Below are positions 7,897 through 45,722 of a DNA stretch of 57,648 nucleotides, in pieces (the stretch's first letter is position 1; each line of letters opens with the position of its first letter). The notes below the pieces were generated by a model. The model did not search any database. It was not told where the DNA came from and worked only from the letters and a program-made list of their open reading frames with translations. The translations under genes were made by a program, and so were the position numbers. The stretch comes from Kiritimatiellia bacterium (GTDB taxonomy: Bacteria > Verrucomicrobiota > Kiritimatiellia > RFP12 > UBA1067), in the NCBI GenBank assembly GCA_028700415.1, contig JAQVSS010000005.1, positions 1 through 57,648 on the forward strand, in the 5' to 3' direction.

Positions 7897-8020
7897 CTTC
7901 ACACCTTGCCGCCTGTACGGCCAACAGCCTGAACGTTCAGACAGGCGTAAAATAGCAAAGCGGATACGGAGGTTCAAGGTGGAACACGGCACAATCCGTC
8001 CGTGCAGAAGCGGGGAAAAC

Positions 8021-9205
8021 ATGCCATACTCTTACTCGATAGAAGAAACCCCCTTTAAACCGCGAGACCGCTTTATGACCTTTTCCGACATTCATGTGCG
8101 CCCTGACCTGATCGCGGCGTTGGGAAAACAGAACATCACCGAACCGACCCCGATTCAAACCGTGGCGTATCCCGTATTGTTGGAGGGGAAGGACGCCTAT
8201 CTGAACGCGGAGACCGGCACCGGAAAGACGCTGGCTTACCTGTTGCCGCTCTTCTGCCGCATCGACCCGAAGCTGGCGGCGGCACAGCTCGTGATCGTCG
8301 CGCCGACGCACGAGTTGGCCCTTCAGATTCAGCGCCAGTGCTGCGATTTGGCGGTGAACGCGGGCTTTCCGGTTCAGACGCTGTTGTTGATCGGAGGCAC
8401 GCTGATCGACCGGCAGATCGAGAAGCTCAAGAAAAAGCCGCACATCGTTGTCGGTTCGCCCGGCCGCATCCGCGAGCTGATCCAGCTCGGCAAGCTCAAG
8501 GCGCACCAGGTGAAGAGCCTGGTGATCGACGAGGCGGACCGGTTGCTGGTCGAGGAGAGTCTGCCCGCGATCCAAGACCTGCTCCATGTCCTGCCGCGGG
8601 ACCGTCAGTTGGCGTTCGTGTCCGCCACGCGGCAGCCGGAGAGTATGGGGGTCATCGCGTCTCTCGCGCCCGCGCTGGTCATGCTGCAGACCGCGTCCGC
8701 GCCGATGAATCCGGACATCGGGCACTTCGGCCTCGTCTGCGAGGAACGCGATAAGCCGGATCTGTTGCGCAGTCTGTTGCACGCGTTGGAACCCGGGCGC
8801 TGCATCGTTTTTGTTCACCGGACCGAGACGGCGGAGATCGTGGCGGCCAAGCTGGCCTACCACCACATGGCCGTGGCGCAGTTGCACGGCGCGTTCGACA
8901 AGCGGGACCGCAAACAGGCGATGGACGATTTCCGCTGCGGCCGCGCGAAGGTGCTGCTGGCCTCGGACATCGCGGCACGGGGTCTCGACATTCCCGGGGT
9001 CACGCATATTTTCAACCTCGATGCGCCCACGCTCAGCAAGGCGTATCTGCACCGGGTGGGCCGCACAGGCCGGGCCGGGGCGGCGGGCATGGCGGTCACG
9101 CTGTTCACCGGGGCCGAAACGCATCTGGCCCGGCGCTATGAAGAGGAGTTGGGTATCGTGATCCGGCGGTGCCGTCTGCGTGAAGGCCAAATGATCCCGG
9201 CGTGA
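8021..9205 (+). CDS. DEAD-box ATP-dependent RNA helicase
   Basis: Motifs PTPIQ, AETGTGKT, VIDEAD, SAT, HRVGRTGRAG. Start trimmed to MPYSY (8021); MTFSD is also possible. Confidence 0.9.
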   Translation: MPYSYSIEETPFKPRDRFMTFSDIHVRPDLIAALGKQNITEPTPIQTVAYPVLLEGKDAYLNAETGTGKTLAYLLPLFCRIDPKLAAAQLVIVAPTHELALQIQRQCCDLAVNAGFPVQTLLLIGGTLIDRQIEKLKKKPHIVVGSPGRIRELIQLGKLKAHQVKSLVIDEADRLLVEESLPAIQDLLHVLPRDRQLAFVSATRQPESMGVIASLAPALVMLQTASAPMNPDIGHFGLVCEERDKPDLLRSLLHALEPGRCIVFVHRTETAEIVAAKLAYHHMAVAQLHGAFDKRDRKQAMDDFRCGRAKVLLASDIAARGLDIPGVTHIFNLDAPTLSKAYLHRVGRTGRAGAAGMAVTLFTGAETHLARRYEEELGIVIRRCRLREGQMIPA

Positions 9206-9228
9206 ACGGTGAAAGGAGGAGGGTGCGC

Positions 9229-10563
9229 ATGTCGGTTTCGGTCGGGTTTATCAGTCTTGGGTGTTCGAAAAATCTCGTGGATTCGCAGGTGATGGCGGGC
9301 TATTTGAAGCGCGGCCAGATCACCCTCGCGCCATCGCCCGAAGAGGCCGACGTGATTCTGGTGAACACCTGCGCGTTCATCGAGGCCGCGCGTGAAGAGG
9401 CGGCCGAGGCGATCTTGAGCGCGTGCGCGCACAAGAAATCCGGCTGTTGCCGCGCGGTGATCGTGACGGGCTGCATGGTGCAGCGGTACCGGGAACGGCT
9501 GGTCCGGGCGTTCCCCGACGTGGACGCGTTTTTGGGTGTCGACGAGTTGGAACGGGTCGCCGAGGTGGCCGGGCGGGTTGGAGCAAACGAACGCTGCGGT
9601 GTGATCGCCGCAAAAGGCGACCCGGTTAAAGTGTATGACCCGGTCTATCCCACGCTGCTGTTCACGGGCGGACCTTTCGCGTACCTGAAGCTGGCGGAGG
9701 GCTGCGATCACCGCTGCGCGTACTGCGCGATCCCGGGCATCCGCGGCCGTTTCCGGTCGCGTGCGGCAGACGGCCTCGTGAAGGAGGCGTCCGACATGGT
9801 GGGCGCGGGCGTCCGGGAGATCAATCTGATCGCCCAGGATGTTCTCCAGTACGGCTTGGACAAACGCGGTGCGCCGGCCATCGCGGAGTTGATGCGGCGC
9901 ATCGACGCGGTGGAGGGCGAGTTCCGTTTCCGCCTGCTCTACGGGTATCCGTCGGGCGTGACGGACGAGGTGCTGGAGGTGCTGAACACGGCGCGGCATG
10001 TCTGCAAATACCTCGATCTGCCGGTGCAGCACAGTCATCCGGATATCCTGCGGGCGATGAACCGAGGCGTGGCGGTGGCGGCGATAGAGAACCTGGCGGC
10101 GCGGTTGCGCGAGGCCGTTCCGGGTGTGGTGTTGCGCACGACCTGCCTGGTGGGGTTCCCCGGCGAGACTGAGGAGCACTTCGAACATCTGATGGAGTAT
10201 GTCCGGCAGTCGGAGTTCGACCACATGGGCGTGTTCGCGTTTTCGCCGGAAGAAGGGACCCCCGCGTTTGAGATGGACGGTGCGCCGGACCCGGAGGTTG
10301 CAGGAGAGCGCTGTCAGAGGCTGATGGCGCTGCAGAAGAAGATTGTCCGGAAGCGGGTGAACGCGCTGAAAGGCACCGTGGACACGGCGCTGCTGCTCAG
10401 GCGGGAGGGCGACGTTTGGATGGCGCGGTTGCCGCGGCAGGCGCCGGACGTGGACGGTGAAACCCGTGTGGCCCATGTGCCCCGGCAGGCAAGGGCCGGC
10501 GATTTCGTGCGGGTGGAGATCACGGGCGGCAGAGGGTATGATTTGACGGCGAGGGCGGTTTAA
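9229..10563 (+). CDS. rimO: Ribosomal protein S12 methylthiotransferase (MiaB-family radical SAM with TRAM domain)
   Basis: N-terminal FISLGCSKNLVDSQ, radical-SAM CDHRCAYCAIP, C-terminal TRAM-like GDFVRVEITG. The ORF-track start at 9202 overlaps the helicase stop; MSVSV at 9229 is preferred. Confidence 0.85.
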   Translation: MSVSVGFISLGCSKNLVDSQVMAGYLKRGQITLAPSPEEADVILVNTCAFIEAAREEAAEAILSACAHKKSGCCRAVIVTGCMVQRYRERLVRAFPDVDAFLGVDELERVAEVAGRVGANERCGVIAAKGDPVKVYDPVYPTLLFTGGPFAYLKLAEGCDHRCAYCAIPGIRGRFRSRAADGLVKEASDMVGAGVREINLIAQDVLQYGLDKRGAPAIAELMRRIDAVEGEFRFRLLYGYPSGVTDEVLEVLNTARHVCKYLDLPVQHSHPDILRAMNRGVAVAAIENLAARLREAVPGVVLRTTCLVGFPGETEEHFEHLMEYVRQSEFDHMGVFAFSPEEGTPAFEMDGAPDPEVAGERCQRLMALQKKIVRKRVNALKGTVDTALLLRREGDVWMARLPRQAPDVDGETRVAHVPRQARAGDFVRVEITGGRGYDLTARAV

Positions 10564-21280: not shown

Positions 21281-21333
21281 AGTAAACTCCTTGTCAAATC
21301 AGGCCTCGTTTCCTGACCGTGTTACCACACGGC

Positions 21334-21385
21334 ATAGGATGCCCTTTTGCGGCATCCTATTACGCCTGTTTGGCGATCTTGTCAA
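21334..21385 (-). promoter_or_regulatory. Candidate kamA promoter (minus strand TTGACA-17-TAATAG) whose -10 overlaps a perfect 10-bp inverted repeat
   Basis: Plus-strand tgtcaa at 21380-21385 and ctatta at 21357-21362. The IR is ataggatgcc-N7-ggcatcctat at 21334-21360. Confidence 0.4.
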
Positions 21386-21438
21386 GCGTGTCTATTCAAC
21401 TTTTCAGTTTTTTTTCACGCATGCCGCTGGAGAGCACC

Positions 21439-22932
21439 TTACGAACGGTAGTTGGGCGCTTCCTTGATGATTTTCACATCGTGCGGATGGGCTTCGCGCA
21501 CGCCCGCGTTCGTGACGCGGTAGAAGAGCCCGTCGCGCTTGAGTTCGGCGATCGCGCGCGTGCCGCAGTAGCCGAGCGAAGAGCGCAGGCCGCCGCAGAA
21601 TTGGGTCATGATCTTCTTGACCGAACCGGCCAGCGGGACGATACCCTCGATGCCCTGCGGCACGAGGTCGTCCTCTTTCACGTTGTCTTGCCCGTAGCGC
21701 TGGCGGCTGCCCTTGCCCTCCTTCATGGCGGCCAGGCTGCCCATGCCGCGGTAGATGACATAGTGGCGGCCCTCGTGGATGATCTTTTCGCCGGGGCTCT
21801 CTTCGGTGCCCGCCAGGATCGAGCCGAGCATCACGGTGTCCGCGCCCGCGACCAGCGCCTTGGGCACGTCGCCCGAATGGCGGACACCGCCGTCGGCGAT
21901 GACCGGGATCTCGTCGCCGACCGCCTGCGCCGCGTTGTAAACGGCGGTGATCTGAGGGATGCCGACGCCGCACACGACCCGCGTGGTGCAAATGGAGCCG
22001 GGGCCGATGCCGACCTTGACGGCGTGCGCGCCGGCCTTCATCAGGGCCAGGGCGCCTTCGCCCGTGGCCACGTTGCCGCCGACCACGTCGATGTCGGGAT
22101 AGTGCCGGGTGATCCACGTCACCATGTCGAGGATGCCCTTGGAGTGGCCGTGGGCGCTGTCGACCACCACCACGTCGACCTCCTCTTCCGCGAGCATCGC
22201 CATGCGGTTGTGGTCGTCCGCGCTGACCGCGGCGGCCACGCGCAGGCGGTAACGGCTGTCGCGGGTGTAGAGGGGCTGGGCGTTCTCCACCAGCTCCAGC
22301 ACGTCGGTGAAGGAGTAGAGGCCGACGAGCTGCCCGTCGCGGTCGACGAGGGGGAGCTTGCCGATCTTGTTTTCCGTCATGATGGCATAGGCCTGTTCCA
22401 GCGTGGTGCCGGGAGCGGCGGTGATGACGCGGGTGGTCATCACGTCCGAGACACGGGCCGCCGTCTTTTTGGCGAAACGGATGTCGCTGGACGTCACGAT
22501 GCCCGCGAGCCGGTTCTGGTCGTCGAGGATCGGGAACCCGCTGAACGAGAGGTGGTGCTCCTCGCGGTAGTCGCGGATGTAGGCCAGCGTGTCGCTGGCG
22601 CGGAAGGCCACGGGCTTCATGATGAGCCCGTTGAGGTGGTGCTTCACGCGGCGCACATGTTGGGCCTGGACCTCGGGCGGCAGGTTCTTGTGGATCACGC
22701 CGATGCCCCCGAGCATCGCCATGGCGGTCGCCATGCCCGCCTCGGTGACGGTGTCCATCGCGGCGCTGGCAAAGGGGATGTTGAGCGTGATGCGGCTGGT
22801 GAACCGGGAGGCCAAGCTGGTCTCGTCCGGGAGAAAGTCCGCGTAGCGCGTGACGAGTGTGACATCGTCGAACGTCAGCCCCTCATAGGGGAACTGTTTC
22901 ATGAAAGCGGTGACCTGAGAATTGACATGCAT
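21439..22932 (-). CDS. guaB: IMP dehydrogenase
   Basis: 497 aa. LTFDDV, tandem CBS region, catalytic loop [19 protein letters not shown] 6 nt upstream of ATG 22932. Confidence 0.95.
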
Positions 22933-23038
22933 AAAAGACCTCCGAACCCTTTCGCTTTCCCGTTATTATATAACCGATCTGTGCCGGATTAGCAATGCGC
23001 AAGGCGGAAGGGGCCCAAAAAAATATCGGCGGACGCAG

Positions 23039-23096: not shown

Positions 23097-23172
<76 letters not shown>

Positions 23173-23228: not shown

Positions 23229-23388
23229 TAACCGCACAGGCCGGCTTCTTTGCTTGTGTTTACCCGTGACACTGAAACGAACTGGACCCGATGTTCGCGC
23301 AAAGGCCGCAGAGTCCGCAGAGTTGATCGAACTCATTCAAGTCGGGATCGGGATTACGATTGAGGCTGTAGGCGGTTAGACTATTAGG
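23229..23388 (+). repeat. Repeat R2, left copy (about 160 bp)
   Basis: The first 51 nt are identical to 28618..28668. By hand alignment the remainder differs by scattered substitutions plus an 8-nt indel. Confidence 0.85.
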
Positions 23389-23408
23389 GGAGAATTGGGA
23401 AGCCAGAT

Positions 23409-23486
23409 GAACGCTCAACGCGGAACTCAGAACGTCGAAGGATTACACTTCAGAGTTGGGCGTTGAACGTTGGACGTTGAGCGTTC
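23409..23486. repeat. Low-complexity hairpin: 12-bp perfect terminal inverted repeat gaacgctcaacg / cgttgagcgttc with CGTTGRR-type internal units
   Basis: Read directly. The right arm is made of tandem cgttgaa-cgttgga-cgttgag-cgttc units. Confidence 0.6.
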
Positions 23487-23787: not shown

Positions 23788-23816
23788 TTGAACAAACCGG
23801 CTGAACCTGCTAAGAT
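23788..23816 (+). promoter_or_regulatory. Sigma70-like promoter TTGAAC-17-TAAGAT at the head of repeat R1 (left copy), upstream of nqrB
   Basis: Hexamers and 17-nt spacer read directly. The -35 sits inside the 7-2-7 inverted repeat cggtttg-aa-caaaccg (23784-23799). Confidence 0.45.
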
Positions 23817-23918
23817 GCCGACACGATGAAGCGGTGCGTGTTGGCGAATGGAGCTTTTGGAAAGGGGCTGGATATGGGAAATGTACAATGTCAAATTACG
23901 ACCCCACAACAGCCGCCA
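23803..23918 (+). repeat. Repeat R1, left copy (116 bp), directly upstream of nqrB
   Basis: Hand alignment with 28502..28617 gives 5 mismatches in 116 nt and no indels. Confidence 0.9.
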
Positions 23919-23937
23919 AAACAAATCTGGAGGGCGC

Positions 23938-24933
23938 ATGGCGGCAAACGTTAAACTGATCAATTGGCAGAAGCCCATGAAGCATGTCTTGCGCGCCAGC
24001 ACGCCTTTGATGGCATTGTCGATCTATCTGTTCGGTTGGCGCGCTGGCGCGATGTTCCTCTTGACTGCCGCGGCGGCCTTCGCCACGGAAGCGACTTTCA
24101 CGCTCCCGCGCAAAGAGCCGGTCTCTTCCGCCGTTTTCGTTTCCGCCGCGCTTTTCACCTTCTCTCTGCCGCCCACCCTTCCTTTCTGGATGGCGGTTGT
24201 GGGCATCGTCTTCGGCATCGTCTTCGGTAAGATGGTCTACGGTGGGTTCGGACGTAACGTCTTCAACCCCGCGCTGACCGGACGGGCTTTCATCTATATC
24301 AGCTTCGGCAACTTCATGACCGCCCAGTGGTACGAGCCATGGACACGCTTCCCGGCTGGCCTGGCGCACTGGGGCTGGACCGCCGCATCCGCCCCGCCGG
24401 ATGCAATCACCTCGGCCACTCCGGGCGCGCTGCTCAAAATGTCGGCTGAAACTCTAGCCGAGCGCGGCCTCACCGCCGACCTCTCGCTGCGCGCCCTGTT
24501 CATGGGAGATTGCGCCGGTGTGATCGGCGGCACCAGCGCCGCGCTGACCATCCTGTGCGGACTCTACCTGCTGTGGAGCAAGGCCGCCAACTACCGCATC
24601 GTGATCGCGGGCTTTGCAGGCTTCACGGTTGTACAGACCTTTTTTTGGCAACTGGGCGTCGGCAACGCCGCCGATCCTCTGCGCGCCGCCGCCGCCGGCA
24701 GCCTGATCATCGGCATCTTCTTTTATGCCACAGACCCCATCACCGCCTCCCAGACGAATCCCGGACGCTGGATCTACGGCGCTTTCATCGGAGTCATGTC
24801 CTGCCTGATAGCCACCTTCTCGGCCTGGCCGGCCGGCACGATGTTCGCCGTGCTGCTGGCCAACATGTTCGCGCCGATCATGGATCACGTCATCAAACTA
24901 TTGCAGTCCAACCCGGGAAAGGCCGCGACTTGA
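23938..24933 (+). CDS. nqrB: NqrB/RnfD-like membrane subunit (FMN-binding) of an NQR/RNF-type redox pump
   Basis: GFGRNVFNPALTGRAF, flavinylation-type motif PPDAITSATPGALL, YATDPITASQT. Start is set at MAANVK (ATG 23938, GGAGG RBS) because the ORF-track start at 23848 lies inside repeat R1. About 331 aa, which is RnfD-sized. Confidence 0.85.
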   Translation: MAANVKLINWQKPMKHVLRASTPLMALSIYLFGWRAGAMFLLTAAAAFATEATFTLPRKEPVSSAVFVSAALFTFSLPPTLPFWMAVVGIVFGIVFGKMVYGGFGRNVFNPALTGRAFIYISFGNFMTAQWYEPWTRFPAGLAHWGWTAASAPPDAITSATPGALLKMSAETLAERGLTADLSLRALFMGDCAGVIGGTSAALTILCGLYLLWSKAANYRIVIAGFAGFTVVQTFFWQLGVGNAADPLRAAAAGSLIIGIFFYATDPITASQTNPGRWIYGAFIGVMSCLIATFSAWPAGTMFAVLLANMFAPIMDHVIKLLQSNPGKAAT

Positions 24934-25535
24934 TGAATGCCCGCGTCAAAGACGGAGTGCGCACCGCAGGTTTTATGGCGGCGCTGTCGATCGCGCTGAT
25001 CACCTGCATCGCAGCATTGTCTCTAGTCACTGCCGAGCGGGTCCAACGCAACTCCGCGCTCTTCCTGCAAAAGACGGTCATGGCGGTGGCGGGCGAGACT
25101 GTGCCGGACAACCCCGCCGAGGTGGCGGAGTGGTTCAGTACTTCCGTTAAATCCGAGCCGCCCGACGCCCCGTCCCTGTACCGCGTGTACGGCACTGACA
25201 AAATCCGCCCGCGCGCCTTGGTATATAAGCGCAACGCACAAGGCCTGTGGGGCAACATCACCGCCGTGGTCGGCTTCGATCCTGCGCGGCGCGCCTTTCT
25301 GGAGACCCGCTTTATCGAGCATAACGAGACGCCCGGACTAGGTGCGCGCATCAGTGAAGAGTGGTTCGCGCGGCAGACCGCAGGCAAGACCGGGCCTTTC
25401 AAGCTTATGCCCGAAGGCACAAGTTCGCCAGCACCCACGGAGATCGACGCTATCACCGGCGCGACGGTCACATCATCGGCCGTGCGCGACATGCTGAACA
25501 AGCTGCTGCTGGAAATCAAGGAGACCCGGCCATGA
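24933..25535 (+). CDS. nqrC: NqrC/RnfG-like FMN-binding subunit
   Basis: N-terminal TM segment, then the FMN_bind-type motif EIDAITGATVTSSAV. ATG overlaps the nqrB stop (ATGA). About 200 aa, which is RnfG-sized. Confidence 0.85.
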   Translation: MNARVKDGVRTAGFMAALSIALITCIAALSLVTAERVQRNSALFLQKTVMAVAGETVPDNPAEVAEWFSTSVKSEPPDAPSLYRVYGTDKIRPRALVYKRNAQGLWGNITAVVGFDPARRAFLETRFIEHNETPGLGARISEEWFARQTAGKTGPFKLMPEGTSSPAPTEIDAITGATVTSSAVRDMLNKLLLEIKETRP

Positions 25536-26152
25536 CCGCCATCCGCGACTGGAAAATATTCAAAGATAACCTGATGACGCAAAACCCGGTCTTCGTGCAG
25601 GTGCTGGGCATCTGCTCTACACTGGCGGTCACCAATGTGCTTAAAAACACGCTGGTAATGTGCCTGGGCTTGATATTCGTCACGACCCTGTCCAATCTTA
25701 GCCTTTCGCTGCTGCGCGCCTGGATACCCTCGCGCATCCGCATGATGGTGGAAGTGCTGATCATCGCCAGCCTTGTGATCATCGTGGACATATGCCTCAA
25801 AGCCTACTATCCCGACATCTCACGCCAGCTCGGGCCGTACGTGGGACTGATCATTACCAACTGCATCATCATGGGCCGCGCCGAGGCGGTGGCGCTTACC
25901 AGCCCGCCGCGCACAGCCTTGATCGACGGCATATCATCCGGCATCGGCTACTCATACGTGTTGCTGCTGATTGCCTGCTGCCGTGAGCTGCTGGGCACTG
26001 GCGGCATCTGGGGCGTGCGTTTGCTGGGGCAGTCGTGGATCAACTGGTCGATCATGGTCATGGCGCCCGGCGGTTTCTTTGTGTTGGCCGTCTTCATTTG
26101 GATCGTAAAGGGCTGGATTATGCGTCCCGTAACGGGAAAAGCGGGGGCTTAA
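25532..26152 (+). CDS. nqrD: NqrD/RnfE-like membrane subunit
   Basis: QNPVFVQVLGICSTLAVT and LGPYVGLIITNCIIMGRAEA. Start overlaps the nqrC stop. Confidence 0.9.
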   Translation: MTAIRDWKIFKDNLMTQNPVFVQVLGICSTLAVTNVLKNTLVMCLGLIFVTTLSNLSLSLLRAWIPSRIRMMVEVLIIASLVIIVDICLKAYYPDISRQLGPYVGLIITNCIIMGRAEAVALTSPPRTALIDGISSGIGYSYVLLLIACCRELLGTGGIWGVRLLGQSWINWSIMVMAPGGFFVLAVFIWIVKGWIMRPVTGKAGA

Positions 26153-26153
26153 C

Positions 26154-26747
26154 ATGCAGGAACTGGGATTCTTCGCGATTTTGTTCTCAGCGGTGTTCAC
26201 AAACAACATCCTGCTGACCAACTATCTGGGCATGTGCTCATTCCTCGGCTGTTCGCGCGAGATCAAGACCGCGCTGGGGCTGGGTTCGGCCGTGATCTTC
26301 GTCACCGCCGCCACCAGCGTACTCAACTGGCTGGTATACGCCTGCATCCTTGTGCCGCTGGATCTAGTGTACCTGCGTTTCATAGTCTTCATTGTGGTGA
26401 TCGCCGCATTCGTGCAGTTGGTGGAGATGATTATCGAACGCGTCTCCGAACCGCTGTACAACGCGCTGGGCATTTTTCTGCCGCTGATCACGGTAAACTG
26501 CGCGATTTTAGGAGTGAGTCTCTTTATGGTTATTCGCGAATACACGTTCAAACAGGCCGCCGCTTACGGTCTGGGCAGCGGTGTGGGCTGGGCCTTGGCG
26601 ATCATTGCGATGGCTGGCATACGCCAGCGCCTGACGCAGCGTTCGCGCATCCCGCGCGGCCTGGAAGGCCCGGGTATTGCGCTGATCATCGCCGGCACCA
26701 TGGCCCTCGCCTTCATGGGCTTCAACGGCATGATCAACCTTAGCTGA
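26154..26747 (+). CDS. nqrE: NqrE/RnfA-like membrane subunit
   Basis: FSAVFTNNILLTNYLGMCSFLG and LPLITVNCAILGVSL. 197 aa. Confidence 0.9.
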   Translation: MQELGFFAILFSAVFTNNILLTNYLGMCSFLGCSREIKTALGLGSAVIFVTAATSVLNWLVYACILVPLDLVYLRFIVFIVVIAAFVQLVEMIIERVSEPLYNALGIFLPLITVNCAILGVSLFMVIREYTFKQAAAYGLGSGVGWALAIIAMAGIRQRLTQRSRIPRGLEGPGIALIIAGTMALAFMGFNGMINLS

Positions 26748-26772
26748 CTCACAACTCGCCCTCGCCGATCAA

Positions 26773-27873
26773 ATGACCTCCATCCTGATAGCCGTGTCCG
26801 TAATCTGCGCCATCAACACCGCGTTCGCGATTCTCTTGCTGATCGCGGAGGCGCTGATCGTTGACACCGGCGAGTGCCGCATCGTGATTAACGGCGAAAA
26901 GGAACTGGCGGTCAACGGCGGCCGCTCGCTGCTGGCGACGCTCAAAGACGAACAGATCTTCATACCCTCCGCCTGCGGTGGACGCGGTTCCTGCGGCCTC
27001 TGCAAAGTGACGGTATTGGAGGGCGCGGGGCCGTTGTTGCCGACTGAGACGCCCTGGCTGACGCCAGAGGAACAAAAAGGCCAGATTCGCCTGGCCTGCC
27101 AAGTCAAGGTCAGACGTGACCTGCGCATCAAGATCCCTGACGAGCTTTTCAACGTGCGCCAATACTGCACACAGGTTGAGGACATCACCGACCTGACGCA
27201 CGACATCAAACAAATCACCCTCAAGCTACTGGAACCACCTGAAATCGCTTTCAAGGCCGGTCAATTCATCCAGATCGAGGTGCCGCCTTACGCGTTGACC
27301 GACGAGCCGGTCTACCGCGCCTATTCGATCTCTTCAGACCCCGCGGAAAAAGACCACATGGAATTAGAGATCCGCTACGTACCCAACGGCATCTGCACCA
27401 CTTATGTCCACAAGCACCTTAAACCCGGCGACAAAGTTACCCTCAACGGACCCTACGGCGAATTCGGGCTGAGCGCTTCCGACAGCGAGCTCATCTGCAT
27501 TGCCGGCGGTTCCGGCATGGCGCCGATAAAATCGATTCTGCTCGAAATGGCGCGCACCGGCAACCCGCGCCGCTGCCGTTACTTCTTCGGCGCGCGCTCC
27601 GGTCGCGACCTGTTTCTTAATGACCTCATGCGAAGTTTAGAACAAAAGTTGCCAAACTTCAGTTTCATCCCGACCCTTTCTTCGCCGCAGCCGGAGGACC
27701 GTTGGGAAGGCGAGATCGGCAAGGTCACGGATGCCGTGGGACGCCATGTCAAGGATGCCTCACGCGCCGAGGCCTACCTTTGCGGCAGCCCGCTGATGAT
27801 TGACGCTTGCATCAAATTGCTGCGTGAAAAGGACATGCCAGAAGACAAGATTTTTTACGACAAGTTCGCCTGA
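26773..27873 (+). CDS. nqrF: NqrF-like subunit: TM anchor, 2Fe-2S ferredoxin domain and FAD/NADH ferredoxin-reductase domain
   Basis: ACGGRGSCGLCKV...RLACQV (2Fe-2S), YRAYSISS (FAD RxYS), GGSGMAP (NADH). 366 aa. Confidence 0.9.
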   Translation: MTSILIAVSVICAINTAFAILLLIAEALIVDTGECRIVINGEKELAVNGGRSLLATLKDEQIFIPSACGGRGSCGLCKVTVLEGAGPLLPTETPWLTPEEQKGQIRLACQVKVRRDLRIKIPDELFNVRQYCTQVEDITDLTHDIKQITLKLLEPPEIAFKAGQFIQIEVPPYALTDEPVYRAYSISSDPAEKDHMELEIRYVPNGICTTYVHKHLKPGDKVTLNGPYGEFGLSASDSELICIAGGSGMAPIKSILLEMARTGNPRRCRYFFGARSGRDLFLNDLMRSLEQKLPNFSFIPTLSSPQPEDRWEGEIGKVTDAVGRHVKDASRAEAYLCGSPLMIDACIKLLREKDMPEDKIFYDKFA

Positions 27874-27887
27874 ACCGGGAGGCAAGA

Positions 27888-28355
27888 GTGAAACAGAGTG
27901 TCGAATATAACATCATCCAGAACAACATGCAACCGGGCGCGATCACCCGCGACGGTATGCTGGGGCATGACCGGCGGAACCTGCGCGACATCATCGAGAC
28001 GGACGACGCCGCGGTGCGCCGCCTCGGCCTGACGCACATATCCATTGCGGCGCGCATGCGCGAACTGCGTGACGCGGGACGGGAGGGGCTGGGCGAGAAC
28101 GTCACGGTTTCCGGTCGCTTCGACGTGCGGGTGGACAGTGTGCGCGGCAAGCTCCCCTGTCCTTTCCGGCACGAGGGCCTTTTCGACAAAGAGTTCGTCG
28201 AGATTCTCAACCGCGACACCGGCGCGCGCATGACCTTCAGCACGCTTAACATCCACATGATCGAGGAGCACGGCTTTTACGAGGGTCTGGGTTCGCCCTT
28301 TCGTCTCGACCCTGACCTGCTTGCCAGCGTACTCGGCCTGACCCCTGATCCCTGA
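27888..28355 (+). CDS. Hypothetical soluble protein, last gene of the nqr-like operon
   Basis: 155 aa. GTG start with GGGAGG RBS at 5-nt spacing, 15 nt after the nqrF stop. No motif recognised (LNIHMIEEHGFYEGLGSPFRLDP). Confidence 0.6.
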   Translation: MKQSVEYNIIQNNMQPGAITRDGMLGHDRRNLRDIIETDDAAVRRLGLTHISIAARMRELRDAGREGLGENVTVSGRFDVRVDSVRGKLPCPFRHEGLFDKEFVEILNRDTGARMTFSTLNIHMIEEHGFYEGLGSPFRLDPDLLASVLGLTPDP

Positions 28356-28486: not shown

Positions 28487-28515
28487 TTGAACAATCAGGC
28501 GGAACCTGCCAAGAT
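28487..28515 (+). promoter_or_regulatory. Promoter-like TTGAAC-17-CAAGAT at the head of repeat R1 (right copy)
   Basis: Same architecture as 23788-23816. The -35 lies inside the 5-2-5 inverted repeat gattg-aa-caatc. The -10 is weaker (C at position 1). Confidence 0.35.
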
Positions 28516-28617
28516 GCCGACACGATGAAGCGGTGCGTGTTGGCGAATGAAGCTTTTGGAAAGGGGCTGGATATGGGGAAGGTACAATGTCAAATGACGA
28601 CCCCACAACAGCCGCCA
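28502..28617 (+). repeat. Repeat R1, right copy (116 bp), here directly fused to R2
   Basis: See the left copy. 111 of 116 positions are identical by hand alignment. Confidence 0.9.
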
Positions 28618-28785
28618 TAACCGCACAGGCCGGCTTCTTTGCTTGTGTTTACCCGTGACACTGAAACGGACTGGACCCGATGTTCGCGCAAAGGACGCAG
28701 AGCCCACAGAGTTGATTGAATTCATTCAAATCGGGATCGGGATGACGAGTAAGGCTGTTAGGCTGTAGGCTGTTAGACTATTAGG
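28618..28785 (+). repeat. Repeat R2, right copy (about 168 bp)
   Basis: Aligned by hand to 23229..23388. Confidence 0.85.
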
Positions 28786-28893
28786 TGAGAGTGCGGGGGA
28801 GGAGAAGGGGTTTAGGCTGTAGGCTTTTAGCCTATTAGGTGAGAAGTGGGACGTTCCGGTCTAACAGCCTAACAGTCTAAATGCCTAACAGCC
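28753..28893. repeat. Low-complexity composite: inverted arms ggctgttaggctgtaggctgttagac / gtctaacagcctaacagtctaaatgcctaacagcc enclosing two ~37-bp direct repeats
   Basis: The arms share 11-nt perfect matches at both ends. The internal direct repeats are ggctgtaggc(t/t)(g/t)ttag(a/c)ctattaggtgaga, starting at 28761 and 28815. Confidence 0.6.
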
Positions 28894-28972
28894 TTCTCCC
28901 TGCCACGCCAAAGCGTTACGCATGTGTGCATTTGCGGCCGCCGCAATAATCGGCTGGAGTTCGGGTGCGTGA

Positions 28973-40416: not shown

Positions 40417-43290
40417 TTATTGATTGGAAACTGGGCAGCGGGTGGCTCGGCCAGTGAGGTCGAGTATCCGGCCGAAGATACGGAGAAAACGCTCGTCACC
40501 GCCGCCGTTGGCGAGCTCCTCGGGATGGAACTGAACCCCCGCCGCCGGATAGTCGTCGCTCTCGATGACCTCGATAACCCCGTCTGTGGCGCGGGCGGAG
40601 ACCCTGAAGCCGGGGGCAATGTCCCTGACCGCCTGATGATGCAGGCTGTTGACGCCGATCCGGCCCTCTCCGATCAGTTTGGCGAGACGCGAGCCGCGCT
40701 CGACAACGATCTCATGCACGGGTTTAAACCGGCTGTCGCCGCGGCTATGGCGCACGTCCTTGACCGGGAACTCGCTCGGCAAGTCCTGCCAGAGCGTGCC
40801 GCCGAAGAAAATGTTCAGGGCCTGCACGCCGCGGCAGACGCCGAGCATCGGCAGACGGCGCGCCTTGGCCGCGCGCATCAGCGCAAAATCGAATTCGTCC
40901 CGCAGCTTTAGCACCCGACCGAGATGCGGCGACGGTGTCGCCCCGTAGAGCGACGGATCGAAGTCCTCCCCGCCAGAGAGAATGAGCGCGTCGAGTTTGG
41001 CGACCACTTCCGCAAGCGCGTTGGTGTCAGTCATCCGCGGCACGAACACTGGCACGTTCCCGGTCTTGCGGATGCATTCGGCGTAATGCCCGGCCCTTGC
41101 CCACTGGCTCGCCTTGCCTACGGGCGCACACGTGTCCGAGATTCCGATGAAGAGCGGATTCGCGTTCCCGCAGCCATTGCGCTCCAAAGCCTTGAGTTCG
41201 CGGAGCTTGCCATAGAGGAAAGCGACCTTCTCTTGTTCCGCGTGCTGGTCAGCCCACTCCAGAAGCTTGTCAACGCGGCGAATTTCCGCCTGCACGTCAG
41301 CATACGGCCGCTCATCCCAATGCGGCGCGGCGACGCGTACCCCGTCGACCACCACGTTCTTCGCGCCCTTCTCGACGCGGACGCGCTTGTTGACGTCTCC
41401 CGTGACAGTCACACCATCGACGTTGGCGGCGATCGTCAGCTCGCCGTTCAGGCGGCAGCCCTTTTCGAGTACGAGCTCGAGCCGCGAGCGGCGCAGGACG
41501 AGCGGCTTGACGTTCCAGTCCCCGGCGCCCAGATGCACAACCGTCTTCATGGAGTCATCGAGGAGCTTCCGCACCATTTCCGTCGCGTCGTCCTGCGGCG
41601 GCGCGTAGACTTTGAAACCGCGTCCGGCAGGCACGTACTTCGGGCACGTCCAGCCGCCCATGTTACCGTCGAGCACCCACTGAAGCTGGCGTTCGGCGTG
41701 ATACAGCTTCACCAGTTCGTCGAAATACGGCTTCGCGCTTTCCGGCTGGAAATCCTCCGTGCCGACGATCTCGTCGTCCAGCATCGCGCGGACATAGACG
41801 AGCCGCCAGCGCCAGCCGCTGCGCAGGGACGGCAGTATTTCGCGGTCGATCTTGAGCGCGAGCGCCTTCGCCTCGGCGGTGTCGCGTTTCTCCATGAGGT
41901 GTGGACGGTGGTTCTTCTCCAGGAATTCCACGAGCCGCACGAAGTCATCCGGGTCGGCGCCGGCGAAATGGTACGAGCCGTAGCGCCGCAGTATCGCGTC
42001 CACGGTCGTCGAAGGATCGACGTAGAGTCCGGTGATGATCGCCTTGTTGATGTCCTCGTAATTGCCCTCGGAATAGTACTTGAAACCGTCAACCGCATGT
42101 TCACACTGGCGGAAAAGCCGCTCATGGAACTTCGGGAGAGCGATCGCGCCGAAACCGCCCCACGGCACGCGTCCCCACATGCTAATCTCCGGGAAGGTGA
42201 TGAGTCTGGCCTTGCCCGGCAACTTGTGCTTCAGCGGATATTCCGGATACGTGTCGCCGAAGTCGTCGGCCAACACGTAGTCGACCCAGTCGTGGGTCTC
42301 CAAATACGTGTAAAGCCCCTTATAATCGGCGTCGTCGAAGAACCAGGTGCTGACGATATGCTTTGCCGACGGCTGCGCCGCGGAGTTCATGGCGTGAAAC
42401 TTCTCGATGAGCTTCAGAAACCCGTTTCCGCCCCACGGGCGGCACGTCTTGCAGCCGCATCCGCCCTCGTCGTACGGCCAGTAGCAGAAACTGCCTACCT
42501 TGAGGTCGGCGCTTCGCCCGAGGTCTTTCTTCCGGCCCTTGAGCAACGCCTCAAGCGCCCTTGGCTTCGCCGGACAGGCGTTGAAGCCGGTCGGCGGACA
42601 CTTCGGATTTGTGTTGGGCTCGGCGCGGAACTCCTCCGGAGAATCCGTCCGCATCTGGTTGCCGCCACCTCCTACGCCAAAATCACAGTCAAGCGCAATG
42701 ATCCGATTGTAAACCGCCTTGGAAATTCGACTGAACCTTTTCTTCTCGATTTCCGTCATGCGGGCGGCGTCAACGACCGGAATCTCGTACTGGTAAGTGA
42801 ACGAGTTGTTGCCGTCAAGCGCAAGATCGTCGACATGCCTGCAGAGTTCATGTTCATCCGCCTCCATGTAGTAATTGATGAAATGTCTCGCCAGATATGC
42901 CATACGGAAGGATTTCGCTGGTTTGAAATCATACACACCATCCTTGGGACAGAACGACTTGGCGCCGTATTGGAACGACTTGAGCAAAAGGCCAGTGCCG
43001 GCGACAAGTCCACGCAACCGCCCCGCCCTGATTTCAGCCTCGTCACCCTTCACCCAAACCCGCGCCTCTTCGCCCGTAACCGCAGCGTCGAGAACGTATC
43101 TGACACGAAAGGTCCCGTATGAGTCCGACTCTGGCGTCCGCTCGCGGACCCGTTCGGAGAGAAGTCCCCCGATAAACCGCATGGCTTCCGGGATGGACGA
43201 AACAACAACTTCAGTTTCCGAATACAGTGATTCAGCATGGGTAAACAAACCCACAAACACAATTGACACGAAAACAACCATGCATCGCAT
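40417..43290 (-). CDS. Secreted fusion protein: N-terminal glycosidase-like region (possibly DUF4838-like) plus C-terminal class-I glutamine amidotransferase / peptidase C26 (gamma-glutamyl hydrolase-like) domain
   Basis: Signal-peptide-like MRCMVVFVSIVFVGLFTHAES (start set at 43290; the ORF-track start is 43383). Cys-rich WPYDEGGCGCKTCRPWGG. C-terminal LILSGGEDFDP, nucleophile GVCRGVQ, HHQAV, GVQFHPE. Confidence 0.75.
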   Translation of the reverse strand: MRCMVVFVSIVFVGLFTHAESLYSETEVVVSSIPEAMRFIGGLLSERVRERTPESDSYGTFRVRYVLDAAVTGEEARVWVKGDEAEIRAGRLRGLVAGTGLLLKSFQYGAKSFCPKDGVYDFKPAKSFRMAYLARHFINYYMEADEHELCRHVDDLALDGNNSFTYQYEIPVVDAARMTEIEKKRFSRISKAVYNRIIALDCDFGVGGGGNQMRTDSPEEFRAEPNTNPKCPPTGFNACPAKPRALEALLKGRKKDLGRSADLKVGSFCYWPYDEGGCGCKTCRPWGGNGFLKLIEKFHAMNSAAQPSAKHIVSTWFFDDADYKGLYTYLETHDWVDYVLADDFGDTYPEYPLKHKLPGKARLITFPEISMWGRVPWGGFGAIALPKFHERLFRQCEHAVDGFKYYSEGNYEDINKAIITGLYVDPSTTVDAILRRYGSYHFAGADPDDFVRLVEFLEKNHRPHLMEKRDTAEAKALALKIDREILPSLRSGWRWRLVYVRAMLDDEIVGTEDFQPESAKPYFDELVKLYHAERQLQWVLDGNMGGWTCPKYVPAGRGFKVYAPPQDDATEMVRKLLDDSMKTVVHLGAGDWNVKPLVLRRSRLELVLEKGCRLNGELTIAANVDGVTVTGDVNKRVRVEKGAKNVVVDGVRVAAPHWDERPYADVQAEIRRVDKLLEWADQHAEQEKVAFLYGKLRELKALERNGCGNANPLFIGISDTCAPVGKASQWARAGHYAECIRKTGNVPVFVPRMTDTNALAEVVAKLDALILSGGEDFDPSLYGATPSPHLGRVLKLRDEFDFALMRAAKARRLPMLGVCRGVQALNIFFGGTLWQDLPSEFPVKDVRHSRGDSRFKPVHEIVVERGSRLAKLIGEGRIGVNSLHHQAVRDIAPGFRVSARATDGVIEVIESDDYPAAGVQFHPEELANGGGDERFLRIFGRILDLTGRATRCPVSNQ

Positions 43291-43534
43291 TTTTTTATAT
43301 GTGGTCTTCCAAATCATAAAACCGCATCCCGTCCTTATACTTAATGGTTCACTCGCATCCCATAGACTTGACTGTTGAAACATCGGTTCCTATGGTTCGC
43401 ACTTATTGTGTGTGGGGGGGACGGAGAGTGTCAACCCAGAAAAATCAGTGGAAAAAGTGTCCGGAGGGAGTTTTGGACAGCCGCCGGGCGTTTTGTTACG
43501 CTAAAAAACAACAGATAAAGCGAAGGGCGAGGCG

Positions 43535-44566
43535 ATGATGGCGTGGGATGAGCAAGAGGCGGAGGCACTGGTGGCGTTGCAGCGGGGGATCGGGTTGACC
43601 GAGCGCCCGTTTGCCAGACTTGGCGCGTCGTGCGGACTTTCGGAAGAAGCCGTCCTGGCGTTGGCGCAACGGTTATTTGCGGCGGGGGAGGCCCGGCGGT
43701 TCGGGGCGGTGTTTGATTCACGGCGGTTGGGATATAGCAGCGCGCTATGCGCCATGACGGTGCCGCGGGTGCGGATGAGCGAAATCGCGGCCAAAGTGGC
43801 GGGCGTTAAGGGCGTGACGCATGCGTATGAGCGGGGCTGGCCTGCCGGGCTGCCGTCTGATCTGCCCGGGGGGCCCGGCGGAAAGAGTTGGCCGAACCTG
43901 TGGTTCACGCTTGCGGCGCCTTCGGCGGAATTCGCGGCTGAACTGGAGAGGTTGCGTGCGGAGTGCCGGCCGTTTGCGATTCATGAGTTGCCGGCCACGC
44001 GCCGGTTCAAGATCGATGTGGTCTTCGATGTCCGCACGCGCGACCGCGATGAGCGCGTCGAACGGCGGTTGCCGCCCGTCAACGAACGCCCGCAGGGGGT
44101 CGAGTTGACGGCGGAGGAAAAGGGCCTCGTGCGTCTGCTGCAAGGCAATCTGCCGGTCTGCCCGCAATTTTTCGCGCCGCTGGCGGCGCAGGCGGGGATG
44201 AGTGAGCCGGCGCTTTTAGAAAAGCTCCGGGCCTGGCAGGCGTCGGGCGTGCTGCGGCGGATCGGGCTCTTGCTGCGGCACCGCGAGATGGGGTTCAAGG
44301 CCAACGGGATGTGTTGCTGGGATGTGCCCGAGGCGGAGGTGCTGGAGTCTGGGAGGCGTGTGGCAGCGTTTCCGGAGGTCACGCACTGCTATGAGCGCCC
44401 GCGGGTGGACCTCTTCCCGTTCCGTCTCTACGCGATGATCCACACGCCGACTTGGCTGGGCACGCAGCAGCTTTTCGCGCGCATCACGCGCGAAGCCGGA
44501 ATGTCGGGCGGGCAGTTGTTGCTTTCCCTGACCGAGTTCAAAAAAACGAGCATGCAGTTTTTCTAA
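43535..44566 (+). CDS. Fused two-module AsnC/Lrp-like siroheme decarboxylase homolog (AhbA/AhbB or NirDL type)
   Basis: Two tandem modules. The first runs LVALQRGIGLTERPFARLG...EEAVLALAQRLFAAGEARRFGAVFDSRRLGY. The second runs LVRLLQGNLPVCPQFFAPLA...LLEKLRAWQASGVLRRIGLLLRHREMGF. Confidence 0.7.
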   Translation: MMAWDEQEAEALVALQRGIGLTERPFARLGASCGLSEEAVLALAQRLFAAGEARRFGAVFDSRRLGYSSALCAMTVPRVRMSEIAAKVAGVKGVTHAYERGWPAGLPSDLPGGPGGKSWPNLWFTLAAPSAEFAAELERLRAECRPFAIHELPATRRFKIDVVFDVRTRDRDERVERRLPPVNERPQGVELTAEEKGLVRLLQGNLPVCPQFFAPLAAQAGMSEPALLEKLRAWQASGVLRRIGLLLRHREMGFKANGMCCWDVPEAEVLESGRRVAAFPEVTHCYERPRVDLFPFRLYAMIHTPTWLGTQQLFARITREAGMSGGQLLLSLTEFKKTSMQFF

Positions 44567-44567
44567 A

Positions 44568-45722
44568 ATGAAAATCGTTTGCGACAAGAACATGCCGTAT
44601 GCGGCAGAGGCGTTCGGCACCTTGGGTGAGGTGCGGTTGAAAGACGGCCGGCAGATCGCGGCGTCCGACGTGCGTGACGCCGGGCTGTTGATCACGCGCT
44701 CGACAACCAAAATCAATGCCGCCCTGCTGGACGGCAGCGCGGTGCGGTTCTACGGGTCCGGAGTCATCGGTACGGACCACATTGACATCCCCTATCTTGC
44801 GGCGCGCGGGATTGTCTGGGCGGGGGCGCCCGGATGCAATGCGGAAAGTGTGGCCAACTATGTGGCCGCGGCCTTGTTGTGGTTGGGCGGCAAACACGGA
44901 TTCGCGCTGGAGGGCCGGACGCTCGGCGTGATCGGCGTGGGCAATGTTGGGCGGCGCGTCTGCGCCCACGCGCGGGCTCTGGGCTTGCGCGTGTTGGCCA
45001 ACGACCCGCCCCGGCAGCGCGACGCGACGGATGTCGAGGCCCGGGGGTTCGTGCCGCTCGACCGCGTGCTTGAAGAGGCGGACATCATCACCTGTCATGT
45101 GCCATTGACCAAGACCGGGACGGACGCGACGGTCCATCTGTTGTCCGCGGTTCAGTTCGCGAGGATGAAACCCGGGGTGGTTGTGATCAACGCCGCCCGC
45201 GGCCCGGTGATTGAGACCGACGCGCTGCTGCCGGTGTTGGGCGCGCGCGTGGCACATGCGGTGATCGACTGTTGGGAAGGCGAGCCCGCCTATCGGGCTG
45301 ACCTGCTGGCCCGCGCGGATTTGGCGACGCCGCACATTGCTGGGCATTCCTACGAGGGCAAGGTGAACGGAACGGCCATCGTCTACCGGCACGCCTGCGC
45401 GTTCCTAGGTGTGGCGGCCACCTGTCCGTTCGCGCTTCCGCAACCGCCGTTGCCGCATTGGAATGCCGACGCGGCGGGCCGGAGTGACGAAGCCGTTTTG
45501 CGGGAACTCGTGCTGTCCGTATACGATATTGAGGCGGATTCGCTCCGGCTCAAGGGCTCCTGTGTGCCGGACGAAAAGGCGCGGGCCTCGGCGTTCGACG
45601 CGCAACGCAGCCAATACCCGATGCGGCGCGAATTCGCTTCGACGCGGGTTCATGTCGCGAATGCCTCCGATGCGCTCATGGCCAAGATGGCGGGGCTGGG
45701 ATTTGCTGTCCAGCGGCAATGA
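44568..45722 (+). CDS. pdxB: 4-phosphoerythronate dehydrogenase
   Basis: MKIVCDKNMPYAAEAFGTLGEV...GSGVIGTDHID...APGCNAESVANYV parallels the E. coli PdxB N-terminus. GVIGVGNVGRRV is the NAD site. Confidence 0.85.
   Translation: MKIVCDKNMPYAAEAFGTLGEVRLKDGRQIAASDVRDAGLLITRSTTKINAALLDGSAVRFYGSGVIGTDHIDIPYLAARGIVWAGAPGCNAESVANYVAAALLWLGGKHGFALEGRTLGVIGVGNVGRRVCAHARALGLRVLANDPPRQRDATDVEARGFVPLDRVLEEADIITCHVPLTKTGTDATVHLLSAVQFARMKPGVVVINAARGPVIETDALLPVLGARVAHAVIDCWEGEPAYRADLLARADLATPHIAGHSYEGKVNGTAIVYRHACAFLGVAATCPFALPQPPLPHWNADAAGRSDEAVLRELVLSVYDIEADSLRLKGSCVPDEKARASAFDAQRSQYPMRREFASTRVHVANASDALMAKMAGLGFAVQRQ

Follow-up and report, generated by a model that had tools for sequence, protein, structure and literature searches.

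A six-gene RNF/NQR-type cluster without NqrA in a Kiritimatiellia bacterium and its relatives in other phyla

An ancient family of ion pumps driven by redox reactions has two recognised branches, RNF and NQR, and a gene cluster in a 57.6-kb stretch of DNA from a Kiritimatiellia bacterium (contig JAQVSS010000005.1; this whole stretch is referred to here as the window) raises the question of what an NQR-like operon without nqrA represents: a degraded NQR or a system of its own. The cluster comprises five nqrBCDEF-like genes, which we call B, C, D, E and F, and a sixth open reading frame (ORF) encoding 155 amino acids (aa), which we call X. It joins an NqrF-type NADH module to the membrane core that RNF and NQR share, here B–E. 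We consider it probable, at roughly 0.6, that the locus is a distinct and widely conserved six-protein member of the RNF/NQR superfamily, and not a degraded NQR.

An earlier note, made from the letters of the DNA alone, had described the six genes. All of them are present on the plus strand, every motif it quoted was found, and the ribosome-binding site that it credited to X is in place (Table 1). The genes are tightly packed, with 4-nt overlaps at B/C and C/D and gaps of 1 nt between D and E, 25 nt between E and F, and 14 nt between F and X. By Pfam, F carries Fer2 (plant-type 2Fe-2S), FAD_binding_6 and NAD_binding_1 domains. The same note reported neither NqrA nor RnfC, RnfB or ApbE nearby; Pfam scans of the approximately 46 large ORFs of the window, in which small ORFs were not scanned, agree, and likewise gave no Complex1_51K, SLBB or Fer4-type RnfB protein.

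Table 1. Coordinates of the operon genes and repeats in the window, and of related loci with a rubredoxin gene after X (TM, transmembrane).
Feature	Position	Strand	Description
B (RnfD/NqrB family)	23938-24933	+	331 aa; PF03116 (NQR2_RnfD_RnfE); flavinylation-type motif DAITSAT, in full DAITSATPGAL
C (RnfG/NqrC family)	24930-25535	+	201 aa; N-terminal TM anchor; FMN_bind PF04205; DAITGATVTS
D (NqrD/RnfE family)	25532-26152	+	206 aa; Pfam Rnf-Nqr
E (NqrE/RnfA family)	26154-26747	+	197 aa; Pfam Rnf-Nqr
F (NqrF type)	26773-27873	+	366 aa; TM anchor, SACGGRGSCGLC, RAYS, GGSGMAP
X	27888-28355	+	155 aa; GTG start; GGGAGG 6 nt upstream
tRNA-Ala(GGC)	23097-23172		between guaB and operon; terminator-like hairpin after tRNA
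135-nt direct repeat	23788-23922 and 28487-28621		93% identical; first copy ends 16 nt before B start codon
165-173-nt direct repeat	23229-23393 and 28618-28790		90% identical
B-C-D-E-F-X-rubredoxin loci	L039, L044, L047, L048, L055, L056, L057, L064, L067, L070; L004:10614-10772		Spirochaetota

The arrangement recurs far beyond this bacterium. Relatives of X were found in 254 genomes in a scan of one genome per species, and the 80 best of these were surveyed with the six proteins of the window as tblastn queries. All five genes B–F are colinear before X in 62 of the 80 loci; another 15 end at a contig edge, with the visible part fitting the same order, and three are atypical (L054, in which C was undetected; L013, in which F is truncated; and L060). 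The absence of an adjacent NqrA is a conserved state in these 62 loci of many phyla, and X is strictly linked after F, a linkage that the earlier note had singled out as a point to check. The 80 loci are labelled Kiritimatiellia, Lentisphaerae/Victivallales, Verrucomicrobiota, PVC (Planctomycetes–Verrucomicrobia–Chlamydiae) group, Spirochaetota, Sumerlaeota and Krumholzibacteriota; X-carrying lineages beyond them include Clostridia and Thermotogota, and the labels of the 254 genomes span at least six phyla. The closest locus, L009, is from a Kiritimatiellae metagenome-assembled genome (MAG) and has all six genes at 83–95% protein identity, which by itself makes Kiritimatiellia the most likely origin of the window. 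The B-C-D-E-F-X order is also kept in two Clostridia (X 47% identical), in Mesotoga (Thermotogota), in the cultured spirochaete Pleomorphochaeta and in the two most divergent X homologues that we looked up. The related contexts with precomputed Pfam annotation, including those of Clostridia, Mesotoga, Pleomorphochaeta and the divergent homologues, list no NqrA, RnfC, RnfB or ApbE. Nor is NqrA, RnfC or ApbE among the annotated representatives of recurrent neighbour clusters of the 80 loci, not every one of which is annotated. Two loci from PVC MAGs suggest that F and X form a functional pair: L060 has a soluble F without the TM anchor together with X, and no B–E within 10 kb (L060:8898-10471), and L017, one of the contig-edge loci, has F and X with 1.1 kb of unrelated sequence upstream (L017:1071-2749).

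We compared B–F with the subunits of NQR and RNF. B matches the TIGR01946 rnfD model over its full length (220.5 bits, above the cut-off of 207.05) and reaches neither of two NqrB cut-offs: NF003756 gives 211.9 bits (cut-off 414), from model position ~124 only, and TIGR01937 gives 180.6 bits (cut-off 349.9). Residues 142–400 of Vibrio cholerae NqrB align to B 48–319 (133 bits), and RnfD chains from the PDB align to B over its full length (121, 111 and 107 bits). The equivalents of NqrB E144, D346 and D397 are conserved in the alignment, and B lacks the ~94-residue N-terminal extension of NqrB (331 versus ~410 aa); it has an NqrB-like core in an RnfD architecture. C reaches neither the rnfG cut-off (74.9 bits against 102) nor that of nqrC (56.3 against 144), and its best PDB match is the RnfG of Acetobacterium woodii (42.9 bits), with NqrC at 38 and 32 bits. 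D also falls below both cut-offs, scoring 225.5 bits with the NqrD profile (cut-off 235) and 168.3–171 bits with RnfE (cut-off 213.4); against structures it gives 181.7 bits with V. cholerae NqrD and 135 bits with RnfE. E scores almost equally with rnfA (224.6 bits; cut-off 229.3) and nqrE (224.2 bits; cut-off 247.55), both below cut-off, and with the structures of NqrE (190 bits) and RnfA (186.6 bits). In the alignments, D and E retain the cysteine ligands for the 2Fe-2S cluster within the membrane (equivalents of NqrD Cys29 and Cys112, and of NqrE Cys26 and Cys120), and the equivalents of NqrD D133 and NqrE E95 are also kept. F passes the TIGR01941 nqrF equivalog (298 bits against a cut-off of 295), matches V. 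cholerae NqrF with 224 bits over residues 1–406 with all four 2Fe-2S cysteines kept, lacks ~27 residues of it (V. cholerae 177–202) and has no RNF counterpart. The description of B and C as Rnf-sized in the earlier note is borne out by length and by profile matches; D and F are NQR-like. We take NqrB E144, D346 and D397, NqrD D133 and NqrE E95 to be acidic residues implicated in Na+ translocation by NQR.

The locus can be compared with two known systems. With the Na+-NQR (NqrABCDEF) of V. cholerae (PDB 7XK3 and 8A1T), it shares the NqrF-type NADH input (TM anchor, 2Fe-2S and FAD), the four D/E cysteines, the flavinylation motifs of B and C, the five acidic residues and the B-C-D-E-F order, and D is clearly nearer to NqrD than to RnfE. 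Unlike Na+-NQR, it has no NqrA; B is without the NqrA anchor or the quinone-inhibitor pocket, C is shorter (201 versus 257 aa), as is F (by ~40 residues), none of B, C, D and E reaches its NQR equivalog cut-off, X is present as an additional conserved gene, and the X-type family occurs in fermentative anaerobes. With RNF (RnfCDGEAB; A. woodii 9ERI, Clostridium tetanomorphum 7ZC6 and Azotobacter vinelandii 8AHX), it shares a B of RnfD length that passes the rnfD cut-off, a C that resembles RnfG in length and best match, an E that scores equally as RnfA and NqrE, and anaerobic hosts. It differs from RNF in having neither RnfC (which holds the NAD+ site, FMN and two 4Fe-4S clusters) nor RnfB (the ferredoxin site), and NADH would enter by way of the NqrF-type F, on the side where ferredoxin enters RNF.

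To place B in the superfamily, we searched 1.84 billion representative proteins with HMMER and obtained 178 matches below 1e-30. With the NCBIfam models, true RnfD representatives score 301–351 bits for rnfD and 186–211 for nqrB, a lead of 90–165 bits, and canonical NqrB scores 167 for rnfD and 578 for nqrB, whereas short B proteins of the X-linked kind and their allies score nearly equally with the two (213–261 and 207–241 bits, respectively). In a neighbour-joining tree of the conserved core, X-linked B lies apart from the V. cholerae NqrB clade and from the RnfD clades, in a weakly supported group that takes in Clostridia, Mesotoga, Pleomorphochaeta and an X-less Tissierella. Under a looser test, the ancestor of X-linked B excludes both the NqrB and the RnfD anchors in 41 of 50 neighbour-joining replicates. 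This supports X-linked B as a putative third lineage beside NqrB and RnfD, whether it arose as an early branch or by later reduction. Separately, the proteins P0139, P0150, P0153–P0155, P0159 and P0160 (359–400 aa) have an NqrB-like core that outscores rnfD and an N-terminal extension of 40–50 residues, and P0130 has such a core with no N-terminal extension; these may be additional RNF/NQR variants.

The part of NqrB that B lacks has a known position in V. cholerae, where the inhibitors korormicin and aurachin, both quinone analogues, bind in a pocket formed by Met1–Lys54, Phe34–Leu54 touches Arg330–Asn379 of NqrA, and NqrF docks on NqrA (preprint 10.1101/2022.04.19.488743). With the N-terminal segment missing from B and no NqrA found, NqrA, its anchor and the quinone-pocket segment are absent together. 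To our knowledge, the groups that host the X-type cluster are fermentative anaerobes generally without respiratory quinones.

X itself is conserved to a similar degree as the catalytic subunit. Median identities to the window proteins across the 80 loci (tblastn) are 51% for B, 38% for C, 68% for D, 75% for E, 59% for F and 56% for X; with X so close to F, it is constrained like a catalytic subunit. There are 413 homologues in a 90%-clustered protein collection, every one unnamed or ‘hypothetical’. X matches no Pfam or NCBIfam family at threshold, and sequence and profile searches against the PDB returned only a chance match to dephospho-CoA kinase (E 0.27–0.5). None of 64 X members matches NQRA, RnfC, RnfH, NqrM or ApbE, even at E = 1. 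An AlphaFold2 model built with 64 homologues (predicted local distance difference test score 95.3, predicted template-modelling score 0.89) starts with three helices, continues with a region of four-stranded sheet and ends in a pair of helices; Foldseek found no significant match for it in the PDB (best E 0.23, template-modelling score ~0.2), and no NqrA or RnfC chain is among the 50 matches listed. The protein has no hydrophobic segment, which points to a soluble protein, and its isoelectric point is near neutral. Twenty-four positions are invariant in the 64 sequences, H50, C91, H123 and H128 among them, and of 122 sequences 90 have His and 31 have Asp at position 95; exchange of His and Asp is typical behaviour of a metal ligand. 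Together, the four invariant residues and the His/Asp position suggest that X is a putative metalloprotein with a mononuclear metal site.

On the reading that we favour, NADH would deliver electrons to F (FAD, then 2Fe-2S), from which they would pass by the intramembrane 2Fe-2S of D/E to the FMN of C at the outer face, and then by the FMN and riboflavin of B return to the cytoplasmic side, the same route as in NQR and RNF. Because the acidic residues of NQR ion translocation are conserved, this flow would presumably be coupled to export of Na+ or H+. The final acceptor would be other than quinone. X may be a dedicated cytoplasmic subunit that provides the electron exit beside B, or one that docks and stabilises F, a role proposed for NqrA. 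Rubredoxin, or the rubredoxin-dependent enzymes that detoxify oxygen and reactive oxygen species, is a speculative candidate for the acceptor, put forward because several phyla repeatedly show rubredoxin and detoxification genes next to the operon.

In 10 Spirochaetota loci and in metagenome contigs L004 and L005 (Table 1), X has a rubredoxin gene less than 400 nt downstream and in the same orientation, and a divergent one lies just upstream of B in two Lentisphaerae loci (L036 and L049). Genes for rubredoxin, rubrerythrin, desulfoferrodoxin or flavodiiron proteins occur within 10 kb of the operon in 27 of 42 Spirochaetota loci, often in the company of genes for ferritin and for regulators of the Fur and Rrf2 families. 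After the seven-gene arrangement B-C-D-E-F-X-rubredoxin of Spirochaetota, Fur-family, rubrerythrin, ferritin, desulfoferrodoxin and Rrf2 genes frequently come next. Genes of the oxidative-stress type are also near the operon in Caldicoprobacterales (L090) and Mesotoga (L092), as are MsrB in L094 and desulfoferrodoxin with rubredoxin in L095. These recurrent neighbours suggest a non-quinone acceptor, and since their arrangement differs between phyla, we propose rubredoxin in spite of the inflation of the counts by shared ancestry. That the complex passes NADH electrons to rubredoxin or rubredoxin-dependent enzymes is nevertheless a tentative proposal, which we rate as rather unlikely. The span between NADH and rubredoxin, roughly 300 mV, would presumably suffice to pump ions. 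The soluble NADH:rubredoxin oxidoreductases known from anaerobes are unrelated flavoproteins that feed rubrerythrin, superoxide reductase and flavodiiron proteins with no energy conservation; if rubredoxin is the acceptor, they would share the net reaction with the complex, a functional analogy for which no homology is claimed. The charge of X was also considered as a clue to docking on acidic rubredoxin and rejected, being near neutral and so uninformative.

The fullest form of the proposal is a third functional class in the family: an ion-pumping NADH:rubredoxin (or NADH:oxidative-stress-enzyme) oxidoreductase, in which X, as a metalloprotein of novel fold, would be the cytoplasmic exit for electrons that replaces NqrA and quinone, or RnfC. 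We hold this to be doubtful as it stands. If X were the electron exit, it would represent a new acceptor chemistry for the RNF/NQR pumps and would bear on the origin of NQR from RNF; and if the complex were an NADH:rubredoxin pump, strictly fermentative anaerobes could gain energy from the removal of O2 and reactive oxygen species.

Several observations weigh against the six-protein reading or parts of it. For this organism, the absence of nqrA, rnfC and apbE covers the 57.6-kb window only. Tissierella creatinophila has B–F and no X within the 14.5 kb examined. The earlier note had proposed a phylogeny of each subunit; the tree, built for B alone and by neighbour joining only, keeps B outside the NqrB anchors as described above and recovers the exact X-linked B clade in 0 of 60 bootstrap replicates. 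The oxidative-stress genes are absent from the window itself and present in only 4 of 31 PVC loci, and their counts, concentrated in related Spirochaetota and inflated by shared ancestry, are not independent. The metal site of X is a prediction only, and a weak, sub-threshold helix-turn-helix match (HTH_50; best E 0.0058) in 22 of 64 X members makes a regulatory role possible. Ion pumping, its direction and the acceptor are all deduced from sequence.

The alternative that survives best, although we think it unlikely, makes X a maturation or assembly factor, such as a metal or Fe-S chaperone for F or D/E with a role like that of NqrM; the complex would then have five subunits, and B–F would pass electrons to an unrelated acceptor, be it a soluble one or one in the periplasm or outside the cell. 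A protein that handles metals could well have such invariant Cys and His residues, canonical nqr operons have the accessory genes apbE and nqrM downstream of nqrF according to a 2025 RNF/NQR review, and Tissierella manages B–F with no adjacent X. However, an accessory factor sits poorly with a conservation of X equal to that of the catalytic F, with its position 14 nt from F in the window and its presence in nearly every relative, and with the finding that it resembles neither NqrM nor ApbE nor any chaperone family known.

It is improbable, in our estimate, that X is instead a small metal- or redox-sensing transcription factor for the operon and nearby oxidative-stress genes. Its place at the end of the operon would allow this, as would two model helices (32–45 and 50–65) that lie around a conserved LGLTH segment, and the HTH_50 signal is joined by a few HTH_24, AsnC-type and Fis-type matches; every one of these matches is below threshold, however, and Foldseek gave no significant match to solved structures, DNA-binding folds included. 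An identity of 47% between Clostridia and Kiritimatiellia and the invariant loop Gly, Asp and Arg residues would be unusual for a regulator, and dedicated Fur- and Rrf2-family regulators are already present in the same neighbourhoods.

Direct repeats stand on both sides of the operon (Table 1), 395 nt apart upstream and contiguous downstream (28487-28790), and the earlier note had offered loss of nqrA in a rearrangement associated with them. The repeats occur in metagenomic contigs of the same species only (L006 and L008) and are absent from L009, in which the downstream region is rearranged relative to the window and which has the same six genes; we therefore rejected the repeats as the cause of the missing nqrA. 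A canonical NQR that lost nqrA through them, or one that uses an nqrA or rnfC located elsewhere, as the separate rnf operon of some nqrBCDEF organisms might allow (PMC4148951 and PMC5924567), is very improbable and largely refuted, given that the NqrA-less six-gene order is found in 62 of 80 loci of many phyla where the repeats are absent, that B lacks the segment anchoring NqrA in Vibrio, that the NqrB, NqrC and NqrE equivalog cut-offs are missed widely or clearly, and that nqrA is reportedly missing from the complete genomes of Pseudothermotoga and C. ultunense.

How much of the six-protein system was already known can be stated briefly. The five-gene nqrBCDEF without nqrA is known: it was reported for Pseudothermotoga thermarum and P. 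lettingae (PMC4148951) and for C. ultunense and Alkaliphilus (PMC5924567), the genomes of Pseudothermotoga and C. ultunense being stated to lack nqrA altogether (PMC4148951 and PMC5924567), and was mentioned in passing for Ca. Izimaplasma (PMC6256511). The NqrA-less arrangement is accordingly no novelty, having appeared in genome papers of 2014 and 2018. Those papers left function and acceptor unassigned (PMC4148951, PMC5924567 and PMC6256511). The clusters of P. thermarum, P. lettingae, C. ultunense, Alkaliphilus metalliredigens and Ca. Izimaplasma share with the window the five-gene order and the question of the acceptor, and Tissierella (of the class of C. ultunense), other Clostridia and Mesotoga share its B group; the difference is that the papers describe five genes and no sixth, with Pseudothermotoga compared here by its published description, whereas in the present survey X belongs to the conserved unit in most lineages. 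The ‘NQR/RNF-like’ systems of Meheust et al. 2021 are also partial RNF/NQR machinery with an NqrB/RnfD-like part and an NqrF-like NAD-binding domain. There, however, a single fusion protein, found mainly in Actinobacteria and the candidate phyla radiation, joins an N-terminal NqrB/RnfD domain to a C-terminal NqrF NAD-binding domain for one-way electron export (eLife 10:e66878), whereas the window encodes B and F as two proteins and has C, D and E as well.

The conserved X, the wide occurrence of the family, the joint absence of NqrA and the N-terminal segment of NqrB, and the association with rubredoxin appear to be new. We found no paper that describes a conserved sixth gene of NqrA-less clusters, and no study of this complex came up in literature searches on Nqr in Kiritimatiellales or Mesotoga, or on rubredoxin in connection with NqrF or NqrB. 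The main study of NQR evolution reports no nqr operon in Thermotogae (PMC4014512), and the NqrA-less form is not mentioned in the passages searched of the 2025 review; neither the standard account of NQR evolution nor the main phylogenetic study covered NqrA-less clusters. Clusters without NqrA make up a coherent lineage of wide distribution, with its own sixth protein and a B without the quinone/NqrA interface. B is annotated inconsistently, as NqrB or RnfD depending on the source, and X as hypothetical. A loose annotation remark of ‘acceptor unknown’ thus becomes a defined, testable system with cultured hosts in Mesotoga and Pleomorphochaeta.

The surroundings of the operon offer some further observations. 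The gene nearest upstream encodes IMP dehydrogenase (guaB; 21439-22932, minus strand), and the downstream neighbours are folE and a gene for a DUF2961 protein. The statement that only repeats and non-coding DNA lie upstream of nqrB was right as to the repeats; the tRNA gene there (Table 1) had gone unmentioned. Searches of the repeat regions against Rfam at permissive thresholds gave only chance matches to eukaryotic microRNA and long non-coding RNA models, and a scan for promoters and terminators was not above shuffled expectation. Short palindromic or direct units (for example GAACGCTCAACG...CGTTGAGCGTTC, and several AGGCTGTAGGCTGTTAG with inverted CTAACAGCCT copies) at 23400-23480 and 28750-28900 are intergenic and have the look of repetitive extragenic palindromic elements or miniature inverted-repeat transposable elements.

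Elsewhere in the window, which is ~60% GC, long antisense ORFs are common. Some exceed the real gene, as at 21319-22992 (plus strand) over guaB, and ORF length alone therefore misleads in this sequence. Two long minus-strand ORFs (7937-9190 and 9136-10476) match no family, and the plus strand there encodes a DEAD-box helicase and a radical-SAM methylthiotransferase-like protein. Close to each other (1136-3634 and 5098-6750) are genes for a Ser/Thr protein kinase, which carries DUF4384 at its C terminus, and for a protein of the caspase family (Peptidase_C14). A 988-aa protein (40417-43383, minus strand) has a Peptidase_C26/GATase match in its C-terminal 230 residues only, its ~750 N-terminal residues being without a Pfam match. 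A NirD/L-like protein of the siroheme decarboxylase type adjoins a PdxB-like 2-hydroxyacid dehydrogenase with DUF3410 (43535-45722), and the same PdxB-like gene lies directly upstream of the B-F-X operon in L094 (L094:2474-3625).

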